DNA of 64,000 bases from NCBI GenBank assembly GCA_965203805.1, contig OZ241917.1:2560001-2624000 (forward strand). Direction: 5' to 3'. Positions 16,301 to 51,822 of this stretch are shown here, in pieces (the stretch's first letter is position 1; each line of letters begins with the position of its first letter). Source of the stretch: Candidatus Latescibacterota bacterium (lineage in GTDB: Bacteria; Latescibacterota; UBA2968; GCA-2709665). The notes under the pieces are model-generated. The model saw only the letters and a program-made list of their open reading frames with translations. It did not search any database and was not told the DNA's origin. The position numbers and the translations under genes are program-made.

Positions 16301-16792
16301 GGCCAATGCTCGAAGTGGGGCACGCGCGGACGATGAGCCCAAAGTGCGATGGATCCGTCGCAACAGATTTTCAAGAGGAGGATCGGCATGCGAGCGATAA
16401 TTCTGTTGATTTGCACAATTCAGGTTTTCTGTAGTACAATCAAAGCGCAGCATCCCGACCCGCATAGGTTTCAACAAAGAGGCTTCATCAATTGGAATTG
16501 GCGAAAAATGCTGGTTTTCGCAGACATACTACAATCATAAGCCGTATTTTTCCGTGGAGTCATTAGAGGGTATACAAGGTCAGGAGGTCCGCGTTGTCAC
16601 CTTTGATAATCCGAAATGCATGCGCGACGATCTTTCAGGTTTTGACACCGATGTTTCACAAATGCTGAATCATCGAATGATGAGTCCACTCCGAAAAGTC
16701 GAGTTTACTTATTGGCAAAAAAGTACTAAATTCGAGGTATCGACAGGCTTCAGAGTCGCTGCCGTAGAATCGAAAAAAATGGCGAGGGCGAT

Positions 16793-18409
16793 ATGTTTAG
16801 AAGGAGTGCCCCTTCAAGTGCGCCGGATCTGTTTCGCAGTTTTGAGTCTCATCTCACAGGTCGGAAGCGGAACCGGCTCAATGATCCGTTGTGCTGGCAT
16901 AATCTGTTTTACGAGCACATCACGTCAAAGGTGGATGAGGATAACTTCCGTGTGGTGTATGCCGCTGACGTAGGGCGTCCTAATGCGCCGATTCGTCAGT
17001 TGGTGTCGATGATGATCATCAAGGAGGGTTTTGGGTGGAGCGATGCCCACCTTTTCGATCAATGTCGGTTCAACATCCTGGTGATGGGTGCATTGGGATT
17101 GGCGAATCTTACGGATGAAGTGCCTGTCGAGTCCACGTATTATCTGTTCAAGCAGGCGTTGTATTTGTATCAACTGGAGACCGGTCGCGACCTGATCGGC
17201 GAGACCTTTGCCAGCTTAACGAAGACGCAGGCCAAGGCCTTTGGTGTGTTGGGTCAGCAGATTCGAATGGACAGCCTGCCTGCGCCGGATACTCGGCAGG
17301 CAGGTAAGTTGATCGGCTCGAACATTGCGCTTTGTTGTCGGTTGCAGTTGGTGGTGGGTTGCGTACAAGGGTTCTGGAGGTCGTTGGACCAGGCCCAAAA
17401 ACAACGATCATCGGCAGCGGATCAGCAGGTTTTGGAGGCTCTGATCCAGGGGAAGCCTCATCAGGTTGTCTACGGTCTCACCAGTCGTGAAAAAGGCGAG
17501 AAGCTCCAGGAATTGGGGCTGTTATTGAGCAGGCTACAAGCGACCTATACCGAGAAGGACAGCGACCAATACGATCTGATCGTGCGTGTTTTTGGGGACC
17601 ACTATACGGTTTCATCTTCCCCCGAGGAGGTGCTGCCCAAGCCGCATGAAGCGATCTGTTCATCCTCGTTGCAGTCTGCCCATGATGAAGAGGCGGCCTT
17701 TCGCAAGAAAGGGAAGGACAAGGTGAAAGGGTATACGGTCAACCTCACCGAGACCTGTGATGAGGAGGGCCTCAATTTGATCACGGACGTTGACGTCAAA
17801 CCCGCGACGCGTCCCGACAATGCGTTTGTCCAAGGCGCCATACAGAGGACGCAACAGGTGGTGGGCGACGTCGTCGAAGTGTCAATGGATGGGGCCTATA
17901 ATGATCAATCCAACGCCGAGTATGCCGACGAAAACGACAAGCAATTCTTTTACAGTGGCCTGCAAGGAAAGCCAGGGCGTTTCCGTTATGAACGCACAGC
18001 AAAAGGCGTCACCGTCACCGATCAACAAACCGGAGAACTTCACATCGCCCAGGAATACAAACCGGGAAAATACAAAATCATCATCGATGGCAAAGCACGA
18101 TACTTTCAGGAACATCACATCGACACTTACCTCAGACGCAAACAGATGGAAGCCCTGCCTGACCCCATCAGAAAACGACCTGCCTGCGCCGAGTTCGCTG
18201 CCTCGCCTGCTTCAGCAGGCAGGTGCTCGGCAGGCAGGCGCAATAACGTCGAAGCCAGCATCTTCCAGTTGAGCTACTACACCAAAAATGGCAAGACGCG
18301 CTATCGCGGATACAGGCCACACCAACTGTGGGCGCGCTGTCGTGGCCTATGGGTCAACCTCGTTCGGATCCAAAACTACCTCACAACACCCTCGACGCTC
18401 CCCGCATAA
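16793..18409 (+). CDS. DDE transposase carrying two in-frame palindromic inserts
   Basis: GRPNAP, WSDAHLF, IRMDS, SMDGAY, RNNVE motifs. Confidence 0.88.
   Translation: MFRRSAPSSAPDLFRSFESHLTGRKRNRLNDPLCWHNLFYEHITSKVDEDNFRVVYAADVGRPNAPIRQLVSMMIIKEGFGWSDAHLFDQCRFNILVMGALGLANLTDEVPVESTYYLFKQALYLYQLETGRDLIGETFASLTKTQAKAFGVLGQQIRMDSLPAPDTRQAGKLIGSNIALCCRLQLVVGCVQGFWRSLDQAQKQRSSAADQQVLEALIQGKPHQVVYGLTSREKGEKLQELGLLLSRLQATYTEKDSDQYDLIVRVFGDHYTVSSSPEEVLPKPHEAICSSSLQSAHDEEAAFRKKGKDKVKGYTVNLTETCDEEGLNLITDVDVKPATRPDNAFVQGAIQRTQQVVGDVVEVSMDGAYNDQSNAEYADENDKQFFYSGLQGKPGRFRYERTAKGVTVTDQQTGELHIAQEYKPGKYKIIIDGKARYFQEHHIDTYLRRKQMEALPDPIRKRPACAEFAASPASAGRCSAGRRNNVEASIFQLSYYTKNGKTRYRGYRPHQLWARCRGLWVNLVRIQNYLTTPSTLPA
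17275..17304. repeat. 30-nt CCTGCCTG..CAGGCAGG palindromic element, in frame in the transposase
   Basis: Absent from the paralogue near 33050 (GACAG|TAAGTT). Confidence 0.92.
18179..18238. repeat. 60-nt nested palindromic element, in frame in the transposase
   Basis: 59/60 identical to 39399-39458. Confidence 0.92.
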
Positions 18410-18836
18410 GAGGGGCTTTCTTGTCCAAAACCCCCATACCACACACCCACAGCACCTTCACAGGTCGCCCCTGAGCCGGTACGCCCCACCTACACCGGAT
18501 CTCGTCGACACACACGAAATCACAAATTCCAACGCTGACCACTTACATCCGGCTCTCATTACCCCGTTTTCGGAGGGGACTCAATGATCAATTTGAGGAT
18601 ATCGAGTTGGTATTTGCAAACATACGTAAAAAGAGATGCAAAATTCGATGTCGACAACCTCCGTCCGAACGGAAAATACGAAGCCAGAGGCAAGTGCATT
18701 CAGTCAAAGACATACCCATCGAAAGGGATCGCGGTTGATTACGTTACTAACGGTCGAAGTATCACACATGTCTATCACACAATGGCACTGGCCGGGTGCG
18801 GAAGTGCCAAGTAGGGGAATCGTGCAAGTAACGTCA

Positions 18837-19781: not shown

Positions 19782-20180
19782 ATGATCGAAATCAGTGAGA
19801 ATTACTGGGAAAACATGATTGGTGTTCTGTTGGCGTTCGCGTTGCTGGCTTTGACGATCGAACGAGCGCTCTACCAGGTCTTCGACTCGAAACTCTGGGG
19901 ACTCATCGAAAGAAAATTGGATGAGCAGGTAGGTGGTGATTACCTGGACCTGAAGCCCTGGATTTCTGTGGCTGTCTCGGTGATAATCACCTTTCGCCTA
20001 CAAGTGGACTTCATCGCGGTCGTCCTTGAAAGACAAAACGTTGAATTCCTTTCGATGGTACTAACAGGATTGTTTATTTCCGGTGGAAGTACGGGAATCT
20101 ACAAGTTCCTGAAGCGCGCGAGGAAACTCAAGGACGCTGCGGTACCCACCTCCGCCGCTTCCGGCGGCGACTCCCCCTGA
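19782..20180 (+). CDS. Small 3-TM membrane protein (holin-like)
   Basis: Three hydrophobic segments, TGLFISGGS, basic tail; RBS GGAGG. Confidence 0.6.
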   Translation: MIEISENYWENMIGVLLAFALLALTIERALYQVFDSKLWGLIERKLDEQVGGDYLDLKPWISVAVSVIITFRLQVDFIAVVLERQNVEFLSMVLTGLFISGGSTGIYKFLKRARKLKDAAVPTSAASGGDSP

Positions 20181-20330
20181 CGGGGGCAGTGATTGTGAGG
20201 TGAGTGCGCGCCAGCCGGTGTCGAATGCCTCCACAGAGTGGAGTGATCCCGAGGTGTCGCTGGGCGGCTCGTTCACAGTGCTGTTCAACCCGGCTGATCG
20301 ACTCGTCACTTGTATGCGGCGTCCCAATCC

Positions 20331-21596: not shown

Positions 21597-21898
21597 TGTT
21601 AGTGATCGCCCACATGCGGCGACTGGCAGGATCGGTCTAATCAGGCCAGTTGAAGATCGGCCTAATGCGGCCACCTGGGATGCGATATAGGTTTCGGACT
21701 ATCCGGCAACGGTTCTACCTTCTTTCTGTCTCCCCGACAGTCAGGAGCGAAAAACATCCAGGAGCGAAAAACATCGCAAACCGGAGGATCGAGACGTGTC
21801 AGTATCGCCGGATATTGACGCGTATGCGGTTGGCCGAGTCGGACCGTGCGATCGCCCGTTCAGGGTTGATGGGTCGCGAGAAGGCAGGCGCTTCGTGA
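21597..21898 (+). mobile_element. IS21-family left end plus istA 5' fragment
   Basis: TG terminus with 3 internal repeats; (I)ANRRIETCQYRRILTRMRLAESDRAIARSGLMGREKA; 17-bp tandem duplication 21742-21775. Confidence 0.8.
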
Positions 21899-26720: not shown

Positions 26721-26725
26721 TACGT

Positions 26726-26912
26726 CGTTAATGATCGCCCATATGCGGCCACTGCAGGATCGGCATAATGAGGCCACCTGGTATGAGATTAGGGTTTAGG
26801 ACTTTCCGGCAACGGTTCTACCTTCTGAGTGTCTCCCCGGCATTCAAGAGGGAAGAACATGGCAAACCGGAGGTTCGAGACGTATCAGTATCGCCAGGTA
26901 TTGACGCGTATC
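26726..26912 (+). mobile_element. IS21-family left end plus istA start
   Basis: Same end sequence as 641; MANRRFETYQYRQVLTRI from 26859. Confidence 0.82.
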
Positions 26913-27917: not shown

Positions 27918-27943
27918 CAGGTGTACTCGTGCAAGCCCTCGAT

Positions 27944-28004
27944 TGTTAATGATCGCCCATATGCGGTCACTGCAGGATCGGCATAATCAGGCCACCTGGT
28001 TACA
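27944..28004 (+). mobile_element. 61-bp IS21-end remnant (TGT...ACA)
   Basis: Same end sequence; degenerate copy ends at about 32112 with the same right flank. Confidence 0.7.
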
Positions 28005-29202: not shown

Positions 29203-29790
29203 CCCCCCACCGCATCAGCCGTCGCCGGCTCCTTAGTAAACTTTTCGGCCCTTCGACATTTCGACACCCTTCGACAAGCTCAGGGACCGAGCTCAATGCA
29301 GGCAAGCTCAATGACCACGCGTTGTCAGGCAATCTCCGATTTCGCTCAGAATAACAGGCCGACCGACCGCCAAACCTGTCATCCTGAGGAAGCCGTCCAG
29401 CCTGCCGGCGGTTCATCGGCAGGCTGGCTGACGAAGGATCTACTGCAGCATCGCTTAAACCCGAGCGTGTTCTGTCATTCGCGGAGAGTTGGTAGGCGGC
29501 ACGTTTGCGCCTACACGGTCAGGCTGAGCCGGCGCCACGGAAACCATGCCTCCGCGCAAAGGTTTGTATTCAAAAGGCTTCCGCTACACGTCCCGTCGAG
29601 AAGACGGGAGATTCTTCGACTCCGCTCAGAATGACATGCGTCGTAATAACCAAAAGCGAGATGTTTCGGTCATGCCCTGGCCAAACTGTGACGAAGACGT
29701 TTCGAAGGTGGGGCCTGCCTGCCTGCCAAAGCGTGGCTGGCAGGCGCAGGCAGGCGCTCCGCTGCGCAGGCAGGCGACTCCCCCTCAAGG
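29203..29790. repeat. Cluster of palindromic repeats
   Basis: Triple-nested TTCGAC..AGCTCA (29250-29316); GTCATCCTGAG..GAAGGATCT and GAGATTCTTCG..CTCAGAATGAC pair; CCTGCC nest 29714-29774; CTCCCCCTCAAGGGGGAG. Confidence 0.8.
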
Positions 29791-30057
29791 GGGAGTGATC
29801 GACCGTTGAAAAGGCGCGTGCACTCACTTGCACCTATTTGGTTGCGGCTGAGCAAAGCAAAGCCGCGCTAGTGGAGTAGGTGATGTTCCGGGCGTGTAGC
29901 GTCACGCACGCCTAGTGGAGCCCCAGGGTAGGGTTCGCTGTTGCAACATCTACTTTCACCACCAAACCGGGTATCCAATTCCGTCTCGATTTCACTGGGC
30001 AGATCAGGACCCATTGCGATGACGCGTGTGCCAGGTCAACAGTTGAAAGAAGGAACG

Positions 30058-32194: not shown

Positions 32195-32375
32195 GGGGCC
32201 GGCTCGGCTTCTGCCTGCCTGCCGCCTGCCTGCGCCGCTGCGCTTCCCGCGGCAGGCAGGCGCTCCGCTTGGCGCAGGCAGGCGACTCCCCTCAAGGGGG
32301 GAGTGATTGCGACGTGAATGCGCGACAGCCGGTGTCGAATGCGTCCACAGGGTGACGTGATTGCGAGAGGTCGCT
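32195..32375. repeat. Composite repeat containing a 69-nt nested CCTGCCTG element (32214-32282)
   Basis: Nearly identical to 33620-33795. Confidence 0.9.
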
Positions 32376-32462: not shown

Positions 32463-33500
32463 GAGTCCACTCCGAAAAGCCGCGTTTACATGGCCGGGAA
32501 AAAGCGCTAAATTCGAAGTGTGACGAGGTTGCAAAGCCGGATTGATGATTGATCGCAAAAAAGCGAGGGAGCTATGTTCGGAAGGAGTGCCCCTTCAAGT
32601 CAGCCGGATCTGTTTTCCAGCTTCGAGTTGCATTTCAGCAGACGGAAGCAGGATCAGTTGAATGATCCGAAGTCGTGGCACAATCTGTTTTACGAACACG
32701 TCACGTCAAAGGTCGATGAGGATCTGTACTCGGTGCTGCGCGATGCCAACGAGGACCGACCCGGTGCGCCGATTCGACAACTGGTGTCGATGTTGATCCT
32801 GAAGGAGGGATTTGGATGGAACGATGCGCAACTGTTCGAGCATTGTCGATTCAACATCCTGGTGATGCGCGCATTGGGGATGATGAATCTATGCGATGAG
32901 GCGCCTGCTGAGTCCAGGTATTATCGTTTCAAGCATGCTTTGTATGAGGTTCAACTGAAGACCGGCCGCGAACTGATTGGCGAGACGCTCTCGAGCTTAA
33001 CCAGGACGCAGGCCAGCGCCTTTGGTGTGTTGGATCGGCACGTCCGCATGGACAGTAAGTTGATCGGCTCGAACATTGTGCTTTGCTGCCGGCTGCACCT
33101 GGTGGCGCGATGCATGCGAGCGTTCTGGGAGTCGCTGGACAAGGACCAAAAGGGACGTTTGTCTTCGAAAAGACAGGTTTTGGACGGATTGCTCAAGGGG
33201 AAGCCCTATCAGGTTGTCTATGGTCTCAACCGCGTTGAAATGGGTGAGAAGCTGCAGGAATTCGGGCAGTTATTGCGCAGGCTTCAAGCGACCTATACCG
33301 AGAGCCACAGCGATCTATACGGCCTGATCGTGCGGGCTATGGCGGATCAGTATAACGTCCTATCGTCCTCCAAACAGGTGTTTCCGAAGCCCCCTCAAGA
33401 GATCTCCCCTTTCTCCCTGCAGGTTGCCGATGTTGACGCGGAGGCCGCTGTTCGATCCCGTGTGGCAAAATTAGAAGGTCTTTGGAGCCCGGATGGGTAG
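32463..33500 (+). mobile_element. Truncated paralogue of the 16682 IS (left TIR plus partial transposase 32574-33500)
   Basis: GAGTCCACTCCGAAAAG; protein colinear with the N-terminal ~300 aa of 16793. Confidence 0.88.
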
Positions 33501-33619: not shown

Positions 33620-33795
33620 GGGGCCGGCTCGGCTTCTGCCTGCCTGCCGCCTGCCTGCGCCGCTGCGCTTCCCGCGGCAGGCAGGCGCTCCGCTTGGCGC
33701 AGGCAGGCGACTCCCCCTCAAGGGGGGAGTGATTGCGATGTGAATGCGCGACAGCCGGTGTCGAATGCCTCCAAAGGGTGGCGTGATCGCGAGGT
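33620..33795. repeat. Composite repeat containing a 69-nt nested CCTGCCTG element (33639-33707)
   Basis: Nest identical to 32214-32282. Confidence 0.9.
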
Positions 33796-39044: not shown

Positions 39045-39260
39045 ATGAAACTCCATTACTATCCCGAAACCGATAGCCTGTACGTCGAGTTCAAATCCGG
39101 TCCGGGCACTGAAACGCGAGAGGTCGCCAACGGGCTGAACGTCGATCTCGACGCCAACGGAGACGTCGTAGGCTTCGATATCGACGCGGCTTCCAGGCGT
39201 CTTGACCTTTCCACGCTTGAAACGGAGGCGTTGCCGGTACGCGCGTACAAGATGGGCTGA
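39045..39260 (+). CDS. DUF2283 domain protein
   Basis: YYPETDSLYVEF..DLDANGDVVGFDI. Confidence 0.88.
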   Translation: MKLHYYPETDSLYVEFKSGPGTETREVANGLNVDLDANGDVVGFDIDAASRRLDLSTLETEALPVRAYKMG

Positions 39261-39303
39261 CGGTTGTACGACCACCGCTGATTGCTTACCCATGGAGTCC
39301 TCT

Positions 39304-40776
39304 ATGAAATCTGTTATTGACCTCCGTCCGTACGTCCTCATCTTGACGGGCGTTTTCCTGTGTCTGTCCGCCCTGCCCTGTGATGCGAACCCTGCAGGCC
39401 TGCCTGCGCCGAGTTCTCTGCCTCGCCTGCTTCAGCAGGCAGGTGCTCGGCAGGCAGGCGGACCCCGGTTGACCCTCGAGGCGTGTCTGAGGCAGGCGCT
39501 GGCCAACAACCGGCAACTGGCGGCGGCCGGATTCGCCGCCGAAAAGGCAAACTGGGACCGCCGGAACGCGTGGTCGCAGTTCGCGCCGAGGGTGAGCTTC
39601 AATACGGAGGTGACGCGGATTGACGAACAGACGCTGGCCGAGCGGGACTTTTCCAGGTACTTTCCACCCGAGATCCCCGTACCGCAAGTGGCGTTCCGGA
39701 CCTCGTACTATTCGTCGTTCCAGGCGCACGTCCCCATCTTCGACGCGGAACTGATCAACGGCGTTGCCGTGGCGACCACCGGACAGTCCGCGGCCGAACG
39801 GACTCGAGAGGCCATCCGCGATCAAATCCTCTATCAGGTCACCTTCGGGTACCTGGAAGTGCTGAAACGCCGCGCGACGCTCGAACTTCAGCGGGAATTC
39901 CTCGTCCTGACCGGCCTGAACGTCAAAAAAGCCGAGAGGATGCACCTTGCGGGGAGATATTCGAAGCTGGACCTGCTGCGGTGGCAGGTGGAACACCAGC
40001 AGCAGAAGAGCAGCGTGGCCGCGGGAGAGTCCGCCTTGCGCGATGCAACGGTTCGCTTGCGCCGGCTGCTCAACCTTCGCGCGCTGGAGACGGACGCGCT
40101 GGCGGACGCCGTCCCGGACGTTCTCAACGCGGAGGCCACGCGGCTGGCGAATTTGTCTGAAGGTGACATCCGGCGGCTGGCGGGCGTGGAGAACCGGACG
40201 CTGGTTGAAGGGAACGCAGTACTCGCAGCGGCGGAACGGGACCGGGAACGCAGCCGCCTGGTCTACCGGGGGCAGGTTTCGAGTTACCTGCCCGACGTCT
40301 CTCTCAGCTATTCGACGGCCTGGCGCAGAAACGATACGCCGGCGCTGGACGACTACAGACCCTCTACGGTCATGGTCAATCTGTCGGTTCCCCTGTTTAC
40401 GGGATTCCGAAACCTCTCGCGTCTGAAGTCGGCGCAATTCAGCTATCTGGCGCAGGATTCGCACTTCTCCGATCTGGTGGACGAGACCCGGCAGTCGCTT
40501 GGCGAGACGGTCAACCGGATCGTCAATCTGAAGAACCAGCGCGAACTGATCTCGACCAGCCTTGCGTTCAATGAAAACAACTATCGGATCGTCTCCCGGG
40601 AAAAGACGCTGGGGCGGGCATCGAATCTGGACGTCATCGATGCGAAGCTGAACCTGCAGAACGCCCGGCTGCTGGAGATCACAACGCGATTCGACCTCGC
40701 CTCAACGGCGGTCGAATTTCACTACCTGATGGGCAGCCTCGACGGTCTGGTCGAGGAAATGGCGGAGTCGGAATGA
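39304..40776 (+). CDS. TolC-family outer membrane efflux protein with 20-aa palindrome-derived insert
   Basis: Signal peptide, LTLEACLRQALANN, YLPDVSL, LSVPLFTG; start may be 39292. Confidence 0.9.
   Translation: MKSVIDLRPYVLILTGVFLCLSALPCDANPAGLPAPSSLPRLLQQAGARQAGGPRLTLEACLRQALANNRQLAAAGFAAEKANWDRRNAWSQFAPRVSFNTEVTRIDEQTLAERDFSRYFPPEIPVPQVAFRTSYYSSFQAHVPIFDAELINGVAVATTGQSAAERTREAIRDQILYQVTFGYLEVLKRRATLELQREFLVLTGLNVKKAERMHLAGRYSKLDLLRWQVEHQQQKSSVAAGESALRDATVRLRRLLNLRALETDALADAVPDVLNAEATRLANLSEGDIRRLAGVENRTLVEGNAVLAAAERDRERSRLVYRGQVSSYLPDVSLSYSTAWRRNDTPALDDYRPSTVMVNLSVPLFTGFRNLSRLKSAQFSYLAQDSHFSDLVDETRQSLGETVNRIVNLKNQRELISTSLAFNENNYRIVSREKTLGRASNLDVIDAKLNLQNARLLEITTRFDLASTAVEFHYLMGSLDGLVEEMAESE
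39399..39458. repeat. 60-nt nested palindromic element, in frame in TolC
   Basis: 59/60 identical to 18179-18238. Confidence 0.92.
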
Positions 40777-47914: not shown

Positions 47915-48033
47915 TTTTCTCTTCGTCCTTTTTCTTGTACGCCCAAGAAAAAGGACCAAAAAGAACGGCGCCTGCCTGCCGAGCAGGCTTCGGCCTGTCT
48001 GCCGTTCCAACGGGACAGGCAGGCGCAGGCAGG
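47915..48033. repeat. Hairpin repeat plus 63-nt nested CCTGCCTG element (47971-48033)
   Basis: Outer 33 nt, inner 30 nt (47994-48023). Confidence 0.85.
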
Positions 48034-51530: not shown

Positions 51531-51822
51531 TGTCACGGTTCGCCCTAATGAGGCCATTCATGATCGGCATAATGGAGCCACCTGGAAGTGGCGATTTTAG
51601 TGTTTCGGAATGGGCACGTAATTAGTGTTTTTCAGCCTCCGTTCCAAGGTGTTTTTTGGGTGATTGTGGTAGGGTTTTGGAGATCGATAGCTGTCGCCGT
51701 CGAGAATGACACGATATGCGCCCTGTCTGAGGCGGTCGAGGGTGGCGGCGCGTTCATAACGTTCAGAGATGAGGTCGTGGAAGTCCTCGTCGTGCGGCGG
51801 CGCCATGGGATTGAGGCCGAAT
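51531..51822 (-). mobile_element. IS21-family right end plus internally deleted istB fragment
   Basis: TGTCACGGTTCGCCCTAATGAGGCCA..GATCGGCATAAT; DLISERYER|AATLDRLRQGAYRVILDGDSYR. Confidence 0.85.

Follow-up and report, generated by a model that had tools for sequence, protein, structure and literature searches.

A 30-nt palindrome (CCTGCCTGCGCCGGATACTCGGCAGGCAGG) lies in frame within a transposase gene of an uncultivated Latescibacterota symbiont. We analysed it in a stretch of 64,000 nt (assembly GCA_965203805.1, contig OZ241917.1, positions 2,560,001 to 2,624,000; hereafter, the window) and across the whole genome, a single contig of 5.87 Mb with 59% GC (G000 below). The palindrome is very likely one copy of a non-autonomous family of mobile hairpins that populates this genome and some of its relatives. 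The initial annotation, made from the window alone, had suggested a minimal mobile element that leaves no target duplication. A genome-wide search bore this out, with at least 271 hairpins and 46 exact empty sites.

A hairpin insertion in a transposase gene

The hairpin occupies positions 17275-17304 on the plus strand, its only occurrence in the window (0 expected from 100 shuffles). It encodes LPAPDTRQAG, residues 162-171 of a 538-aa open reading frame (ORF; 16793-18409, plus strand) that reads RMDSLPAPDTRQAGKLIG with the hairpin in frame (RMDS-LPAPDTRQAG-KLIG). The corresponding site is empty in a truncated paralogous transposase ORF of 308 aa (32574-33500, plus strand). There the sequence runs ...ATGGACAG|TAAGTTGATC, with the junction between 33055 and 33056, and translates to RMDSKLIG. 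These coordinates confirm the precise in-frame insertion and the empty paralogous site first noted, with a boundary ambiguity of 1 nt (G). Folded as single-stranded DNA, the 30-mer forms a foot of 7-8 bp, a 2-nt bulge and an upper stem of 3-5 bp, in agreement with the structure originally described (-10.5 kcal/mol, z = -3.2; equally good folds in 2 of 200 shuffles).

The ORF encodes an IS1182-like transposase with a Pfam DUF772 domain (35.6 bits against a cut-off of 23.1). The best curated model was NF033551 (IS1182 family transposase), matched over residues 46-526 at 79 bits against a cut-off of 270. The gene belongs to an insertion sequence (IS) at about 16681-18585 (plus strand), here called copy A, with both terminal inverted repeats (TGAGTCC.CTCCGA...) intact.

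Sequence comparison indicates that the 30-nt palindrome is an insertion and not a deletion in the paralogue. Of the 120 listed homologues in the database, 109, all 480 aa or longer, were aligned with the transposase. No residue stands between RMDS and KL in 107 of them, at identities down to 45%, and the junction is ungapped in all 107. Only two (P0005 and P0011, from other assemblies) carry residues there, reading LPAPDARQAG, a one-residue variant of the insert; the initial annotation had held that carriage of the 10 residues by most homologues would point to deletion. Within the same genome, seven identical 508-aa copies and the truncated paralogue all lack the insert (8 copies).

The insert is also supported by public sequencing runs, so that lack of read support, the other refuting condition in the initial annotation, did not apply either. 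The runs that contain this stretch are largely sponge and coral metagenomes. Contigs from runs X1 and X3 carry it with 0 differences; X1 is possibly the source sample, so that the two are not fully independent support. A contig from another study (X4), 97% identical (22 differences in 836 nt), lacks exactly 17275-17304 and thus shows the precise empty allele. The insertion in copy A is recent. Loss of an ancestral 10-aa segment by the paralogue and most homologues, or an assembly artefact, is extremely improbable given the 107 ungapped homologues, the unchanged insert in X1 and X3, and the variant in P0005 and P0011.

The same junction was used elsewhere. A diverged copy of the IS (copy B, 1518291-1519850 in the genome) carries a 33-nt hairpin exactly where A carries its 30-nt unit. 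We placed the carriers on a quick whole-protein tree with 41 rows: A, B, the 7-copy type and those of P0001-P0042 that reach 480 aa, without P0031, P0032, P0040, P0041 or any later protein. A, B, P0005 and P0011 did not form a clade, the insert label needed 4 changes, and A was sister to the insert-free P0001 (SH-aLRT 99). The sub-family of A's 30-mer is also found at 689671 and at G016:2999400, in a related genome, and that of B's 33-mer at 3336025 and other sites. Hairpin-coded inserts of 9, 10, 11, 20 and 21 aa occur at nine positions in close homologues from other assemblies. A TolC-like gene of the window (39202-40776) has an in-frame insert just past its signal-peptide region that is missing from 6 of 7 orthologues, and the orthologue in genome G007 has a different 10-aa insert at the identical spot.

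From the sequences, we read this as repeated insertion into one junction in four transposase lineages. It is unlikely that a single ancient insertion passed between IS copies through recombination or gene conversion and was later lost from copies by precise deletion. IS copies do coexist and can recombine (A and B share one genome), palindromes are prone to deletion, and the local history near the insert may differ from that of the whole protein in a quick tree. However, the units in A and B differ in length and come from separate sub-families found elsewhere, the four carriers need at least 4 changes with A well supported beside P0001, and in the TolC-like gene, too, one spot holds different inserts in two genomes.

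Copy A holds a second in-frame insert of 60 nt (18179-18238, plus strand; residues 462-481), a 27-nt hairpin (18197-18223) nested in the loop of a 33-nt outer hairpin. It stops six residues before the invariant E487. A second X4 contig, 99% identical (7 differences in 667 nt), skips exactly these 60 nt. They are also precisely missing from a contig of the RNA run X18, which is about 91% identical and comes from a relative without them, and so says nothing on transcription or processing of copy A.

The initial annotation had located the 30-nt insert right after the predicted first catalytic Asp. The position holds, as the insert begins one residue past D160, which is conserved in 110 of 110 aligned rows; D160, D366 and E487 are all invariant or nearly so. 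We assume the catalytic role of D160 by analogy with IS5-family enzymes (hhDST, then aDxGY, then a YREK-type motif), and the three residues are a candidate DDE triad on an RNase H-like fold. In an AlphaFold2 model of the 538-aa protein (mean predicted local distance difference test score, pLDDT, 79), D160 lies in a beta-strand (156-163), D366 ends another strand (362-366), and E487 lies in a helix (482-495). The pLDDT falls below 50 only at 164-177 and 462-480, the two inserts, and at the C-terminal end. Both inserts are disordered loops in this predicted structure. A Foldseek search of PDB with the model gave no match at an E of 0.001 or better; the best matches were piggyBat and Tn5 transposases and retroviral integrases (E 4.5e-3 or worse).

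The inserts probably cripple or weaken copy A. The insert-free IS type is present in seven copies of 99.9-100% identity, and the insert-bearing A and B are single copies. Between A and B, synonymous divergence (dS) is 0.11 and the ratio of nonsynonymous to synonymous divergence (dN/dS) is 0.45, against 0.28-0.40 for other pairs, which would fit a constraint that is weakened, yet not abolished. It is highly unlikely that the insert has a selected role, be it in a dead DNA-binding transposase that damps the 7-copy sister IS, as a translation-regulating hairpin, or as a segment bypassed or removed at the RNA level. Such a role would suit an ORF that stays open despite two inserts, a dN/dS below 1, and the position of both inserts beside invariant acidic residues. 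A hairpin also lies 1-3 residues before the conserved E of what is presumably the C-terminal motif in two other transposase families. Most of the nine insert sites in close homologues are nevertheless far from D160, D366 and E487, the A-B divergence may partly predate the inserts, and the X18 contig, from a relative without the 60 nt, is uninformative on processing.

A genome-wide hairpin family

The window holds 7 matches to the pattern CCTGCCTG-N(4-30)-CAGGCAGG (0 expected), and the genome 168 per strand. The reversed control pattern gave 0 matches here and 0-1 in each of the 41 genomes searched. The 8-mer of the foot is itself enriched (457 occurrences on one strand and 473 on the other, where about 162 each would be expected), and pairing the feet like brackets yielded 271 nested hairpin pairs. 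The feet are CCTG[C/T]CTG and CAG[G/A]CAGG. The interiors are paired, variable and often carry a 2-nt bulge, so that about a dozen sub-families share their feet and differ within. Units measure 21-36 nt (mainly 33, 31, 30, 27 and 36 nt) and composites reach 99 nt. Among 221 simple elements, each read in six frames, a stop codon occurs in 36 of 1326 frames. Related genomes contain between 0 and 168 matches per strand (41 genomes), and between 0 and 141 within the same genus, a patchy spread that is typical of mobile DNA.

We searched the 70-nt flanks of each hairpin separately against the genome. The flanks abut at a paralogous site, with a gap of exactly 0, for 96 of the 271 hairpins, which correspond to 46 distinct sites. 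The target shows a preference: G precedes the element at 42 of the 46 sites and C follows it at 40. The boundary ambiguity is 0-4 nt and is explained by this G|C preference, with no real target duplication. We rejected a model of 2-bp GC target duplication; it fits sites flanked by G|C, but 6 sites lack the C and 4 lack the G, 17275-17304 among them, and there it fails.

Lengths at the 46 sites were 33 nt (16 sites), 30 nt (11), 36 nt (4), 27 nt (3), 21 nt (3), composites of 45-75 nt (6) and 19-20 nt (3). Multiples of 3 nt thus make up 43 of 46 independently bounded units. The description of the element as frame-preserving stands for these 43 and fails for the three of 19-20 nt; one of 20 nt puts a DDE_Tnp_1_4 transposase out of frame with its paralogue. 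The frame is thus kept by virtue of unit length, and not as a rule. Units also land in one another, as in the window at 18179-18238 and 47971-48033 and in protein P0013, where one insert interrupts another (LPVR[LPAAPNAAQAG]RTQTG).

One sub-family behaves differently. The 31-nt units (39 copies, 36 of them within 3.245-3.471 Mb) are part of a larger composite repeat, and the flank search of the genome found no exact empty site for them. Their spacing of 212 nt to 50 kb did not suggest an integron cassette array. The composite repeat consists of a small CCCTTTCCTTATAGGAGAGGG hairpin, the 31-nt CCTG hairpin and then GGGGAGAGGTCTGCG. Its 36 clustered copies (G000:C1:3245340-3470728, about 230 kb) mark the hairpin-densest part of the genome, and their orientation switches near 3.33 Mb and 3.46 Mb. 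A separate elaboration was seen in genome G016 (locus L093, G016:C1:2998300-3001300), where, at about 1101-1170 of the locus, the 3' half (TCGGCAGGCAGG) of a 30-nt GATGCT hairpin variant recurs after the hairpin in at least three tandem copies, which look slippage-like.

The family is depleted in genes and mostly extragenic. With our own crude gene caller (4214 genes covering 84% of the genome), 70 of the 271 hairpins fall inside predicted genes and 201 outside, and many of the genic ones lie near over-extended 5' gene ends. Lengths in multiples of 3 nt dominate. In the comparison of coding and intergenic copies that the initial annotation had proposed, the bias was no weaker in intergenic hairpins (127 of 201) than in genic ones (50 of 70).

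In 38 genes, encoding 30 distinct proteins, a hairpin lies 100 nt or more inside either end. We scanned 20 of the 30 proteins with Pfam, leaving out A (already scanned), B, five near-duplicate transposases and three non-palindromic chance matches. Nine had transposase domains (DDE_Tnp_1_4, DDE_Tnp_1, DDE_3, rve, Mu-transpos_C_2 and DUF772), four had no match and seven had other domains. In four of these seven (DnaE2-like, AP_endonuc_2, thymidylate kinase and GFO oxidoreductase), the hairpin lies upstream of the first domain and is probably outside the real coding sequence. Another carrier is a DUF1156 methylase, whose insert PACALHADR is missing in 4 of 4 orthologous loci.

Several other copies lie on the plus strand of the window. 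The insert of the TolC-like OEP gene (39202-40776) is a 60-nt composite hairpin at 39399-39458, the same as that at 18179-18238 with 1 mismatch in the compared part. A 69-nt composite of nested hairpins occurs upstream (32214-32282) and again downstream (33639-33707) of the truncated paralogue. A hairpin cluster of the same family lies at 29714-29774, and a 63-nt composite at 47971-48033 consists of a 33-nt hairpin with a nested 30-nt hairpin (gaps of 0 and 33 at paralogous sites). The truncated paralogue is bracketed by 96%-identical repeats at 32195-32301 and 33620-33726. Each comprises the 69-nt composite and then GACTCCCC(C)TCAAGGGGGGAGTGATTGCGA, a tail that recurs at 20166-20262 and 29764-29799. 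The window also holds 4-6 copies of an unrelated dispersed repeat (CAGGATCGGC.TAAT..GGCCACCTGG), at 638-696, 21620-21678, 26723-26781, 27941-27999 and 51559-51585.

Proposed mechanism and candidate enzymes

The filled and empty sites show that insertion of a unit, and possibly also its excision, takes place precisely at the stem base and without target duplication. The target lies preferentially between G and C, and units can land in other units. A copy within a gene adds 7-12 residues instead of breaking the gene, because units are nearly all multiples of 3 nt and almost stop-free in all six frames. Such copies survive mainly in dispensable genes such as those for transposases. In the IS1182-like transposase, one copy landed one residue past Asp160 and a second, composite copy six residues before Glu487. 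The inserts would be passengers without a function of their own, moved by an enzyme that acts in trans on single-stranded hairpin DNA. Our best guess for this enzyme, a tentative one, is of the HUH type related to the transposases associated with repetitive extragenic palindromes (REPs), the REP-associated tyrosine transposases (RAYTs).

A strict REP/RAYT system, in which a RAYT (HUH/Y1) mobilises the hairpins, is conceivable and somewhat doubtful. The genome encodes two Y1/RAYT-type genes, the first of which (RAYT#1, G000:C1:4533512-4534114) scores 104 bits with the NCBIfam model REP_Tyr_transpos against a cut-off of 80. The units are imperfect, bulged hairpins without target duplication, as such a system would lead one to expect. 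The six genomes with a RAYT#1 orthologue of at least 77% identity have 16-168 hairpins, and RAYT-like matches correlate with hairpin counts (Spearman rho 0.67 for 41 genomes and 0.52 for the 22 that belong to one family, the genomes being kin and not independent). A 33-nt CCTG hairpin also lies 7 nt past the stop codon of RAYT#1 and differs by one base from the insert of copy B.

The orthologous loci tell a different story. RAYT#1 is flanked in 6 of 6 loci by another palindrome, GAGGGCAGG(G)ATGCCCTC, partly with GTAG and present in 29 genome copies, whereas the CCTG hairpin is private to G000 (1 of 6 loci). We therefore rejected RAYT#1 and its adjoining CCTG hairpin as a cognate pair. Genome G015, which lacks a close RAYT#1 orthologue, has 134 hairpins. 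The units show no orientation bias and end without an unpaired tag. The link to HUH enzymes drawn in the initial annotation was not borne out, given the different cognate palindrome, the orthologues without a CCTG hairpin and the lack of replichore bias.

The second gene (RAYT#2), inside a DUF1156 methylase, was also rejected as a partner, as a hairpin lies upstream of it in 1 of 5 loci, that of G000 only. The arrangement of this gene is unusual in itself. The RAYT-type (Y1_Tnp) domain lies in frame within a DUF1156/D12-methylase ORF of about 1200-1440 aa (G000:C1:4546977-4550684; loci L054/L035, with orthologous loci L031-L034). It is found at 5 loci in 4 genomes (G000, G008, G011 twice and G016), and could be a fusion or an intein-like selfish insertion. 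In G016 the methylase open frame also contains a RAYT#1-type domain.

DUF559 genes (Vsr-like endonucleases) are a lead, not a link. Their match counts follow hairpin counts (rho 0.77 over 22 genomes of one family, confounded by kinship and assembly quality). The nuclease or transposase gene flanked by the motif, which had been suggested as a search target, exists in the sense that one DUF559 gene (G000:C1:3336025-3337072) lies between two identical 33-nt hairpins that point the same way, and a third copy follows after another 300 nt. However, a hairpin lies within 300 nt of only 5 of 35 strong DUF559 loci (5 of 16 when hairpin-rich genomes alone are counted). In G016, two of the three strong DUF559 genes have a hairpin within 150 nt.

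Several observations weigh against the reading of the 30-mer as part of a mobile family moved by such an enzyme. No enzyme could be tied to the family, as neither RAYT-type gene has a conserved adjoining CCTG hairpin across its orthologous loci. Pfam Y1_Tnp counts did not correlate with hairpin counts (Spearman rho 0.19 over 22 genomes of one family), and G017 and G038, with 32 and 75 Y1_Tnp matches, both have 0 hairpins. Asymmetric units showed no replichore orientation bias: CG-bulge units number 40 on the plus and 43 on the minus strand in the 0.5-Mb bins covering 1.0-4.5 Mb, roughly the interval between the GC-skew turning points (0.8 and 4.4 Mb), and 20 and 26 elsewhere. Some of the presence/absence pattern may reflect precise excision instead of insertion. 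Intergenic copies share the preference for multiples of 3 nt with genic ones, so that this bias is a trait of about a dozen non-independent sub-families and no proof of adaptation to coding DNA.

The inference of a crippled IS is also weak, since the A-B dN/dS leaves some constraint. An IS5-like element with three hairpins is present as five identical copies (G000:C1:1308739-1309792 and four others), which means that a hairpin-bearing IS may still multiply. It has two ORFs and hairpins of 27, 19 and 36 nt, the last of which directly precedes the EHPFG motif.

Significance and relation to known repeats

These hairpins offer a clean natural data set on how the smallest bacterial repeats move, with 46 pairs of filled and empty sites bounded to the base. 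The set also includes units nested in one another, a codon junction that was hit more than once and, from another sample, an empty allele of nearly identical sequence. With cleavage sites known to the base, the mobilising enzyme becomes directly testable. The family shows that REP-like hairpins can spread into coding sequence without the classical GTAG/CGTC tag, here in a little-studied phylum of bacteria associated with sponges, where they add loops of 7-20 residues to proteins, including beside active-site residues. For annotation, they account for odd stretches rich in Leu, Pro, Ala, Gly, Arg and Cys in the proteins of these genomes (LPAP..RQAG, PACA..HADR and LPVR..TQTG).

The hairpins might even form a distinct class of mobile DNA. 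Its members would be stop-free single hairpins of 3n length, to which coding sequence is thereby habitable, inserted at the stem foot by a hairpin-specific enzyme other than the resident GTAG-REP RAYT, and repeatedly at the same G|C or G|T junctions. We consider this quite unlikely. Identical positions were hit in four transposase lineages and in two TolC orthologues. If true, it would mean a new minimal mechanism of transposition or integration, and hairpins that accumulate beside the catalytic residues of transposases could act as a natural brake on insertion sequences.

Among known systems, an IS200/IS605 element carries subterminal hairpins at either end and integrates 3' of a fixed tetra- or pentanucleotide, with a strand bias that follows replication. 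The CCTG hairpins share with this peel-and-paste mode the imperfect hairpins and the lack of target duplication. However, a single hairpin makes up the entire CCTG element, its target is no more than G|C, and it lacks the replichore orientation bias of IS608-type elements. Fungal mitochondrial GC clusters and double-hairpin elements are small GC-rich palindromes that spread within a genome and can sit in coding sequence; they are organellar and unrelated in sequence, and we set them apart by description. A MITE differs in having terminal inverted repeats around a non-coding core and a target-site duplication, whereas the whole CCTG unit is one stem-loop.

In the REPIN/RAYT system, Bertels and Rainey reportedly proposed in 2011 that non-autonomous hairpins are moved in trans by a single-copy domesticated HUH tyrosine transposase. 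The CCTG hairpins are likewise non-autonomous hairpin DNA in a genome that encodes RAYT-type genes. They differ in moving as single hairpins and not as inverted REP doublets. The cognate palindrome of the resident RAYT is also a different one, and there is no conserved REPtron-like arrangement with CCTG hairpins. Rickettsia palindromic elements (RPEs), which Ogata et al. are said to have put at about 100-150 nt, are longer than our units of 21-36 nt; sequence families and host lineage are unrelated, and the two are set apart by description.

A full-text literature search found no description of these repeats in Latescibacterota; similar in-frame cases may be found in the supplementary tables on intragenic REPs of Di Nocera et al. 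(2013; PMC3733652). Latescibacterota are not among the phyla listed in the part of that paper considered here. In the corresponding part of a paper on sponge Latescibacterota (PMC12993501), the string 'palindrom' appears only with reference to CRISPR.

In the part considered here, Di Nocera et al. (PMC3733652) define REPs by an unpaired GTAG or CGTC tag, report intragenic REPs in several species, describe CGTC REPs as lacking a dedicated transposase and summarise RPEs as in-frame palindromic inserts. Set against that account, the CCTG hairpins resemble RPEs in lying in frame within protein-coding genes whose products apparently tolerate them (transposase copies A and B, the methylase and the TolC-like gene). 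Like the intragenic REPs described there, they are short (20-40 nt), GC-rich, imperfect palindromes of high copy number, patchy among relatives and mainly extragenic, with a minority in ORFs that adds short peptide stretches. As with the CGTC REPs, no transposase is tied to them. They depart from the REPs of the same account in having no GTAG/CGTC tag, with 46 exact empty sites that bound the unit at its stem foot (CCTG...CAGG) and varying flank dinucleotides. They are also mostly multiples of 3 nt long and nested, and their in-gene copies lie mostly in transposase genes, not in replication or repair genes. We thus file the family outside GTAG/CGTC REPs, RPEs, MITEs and IS200/IS605, with intragenic REPs and RPEs as the closest known systems.

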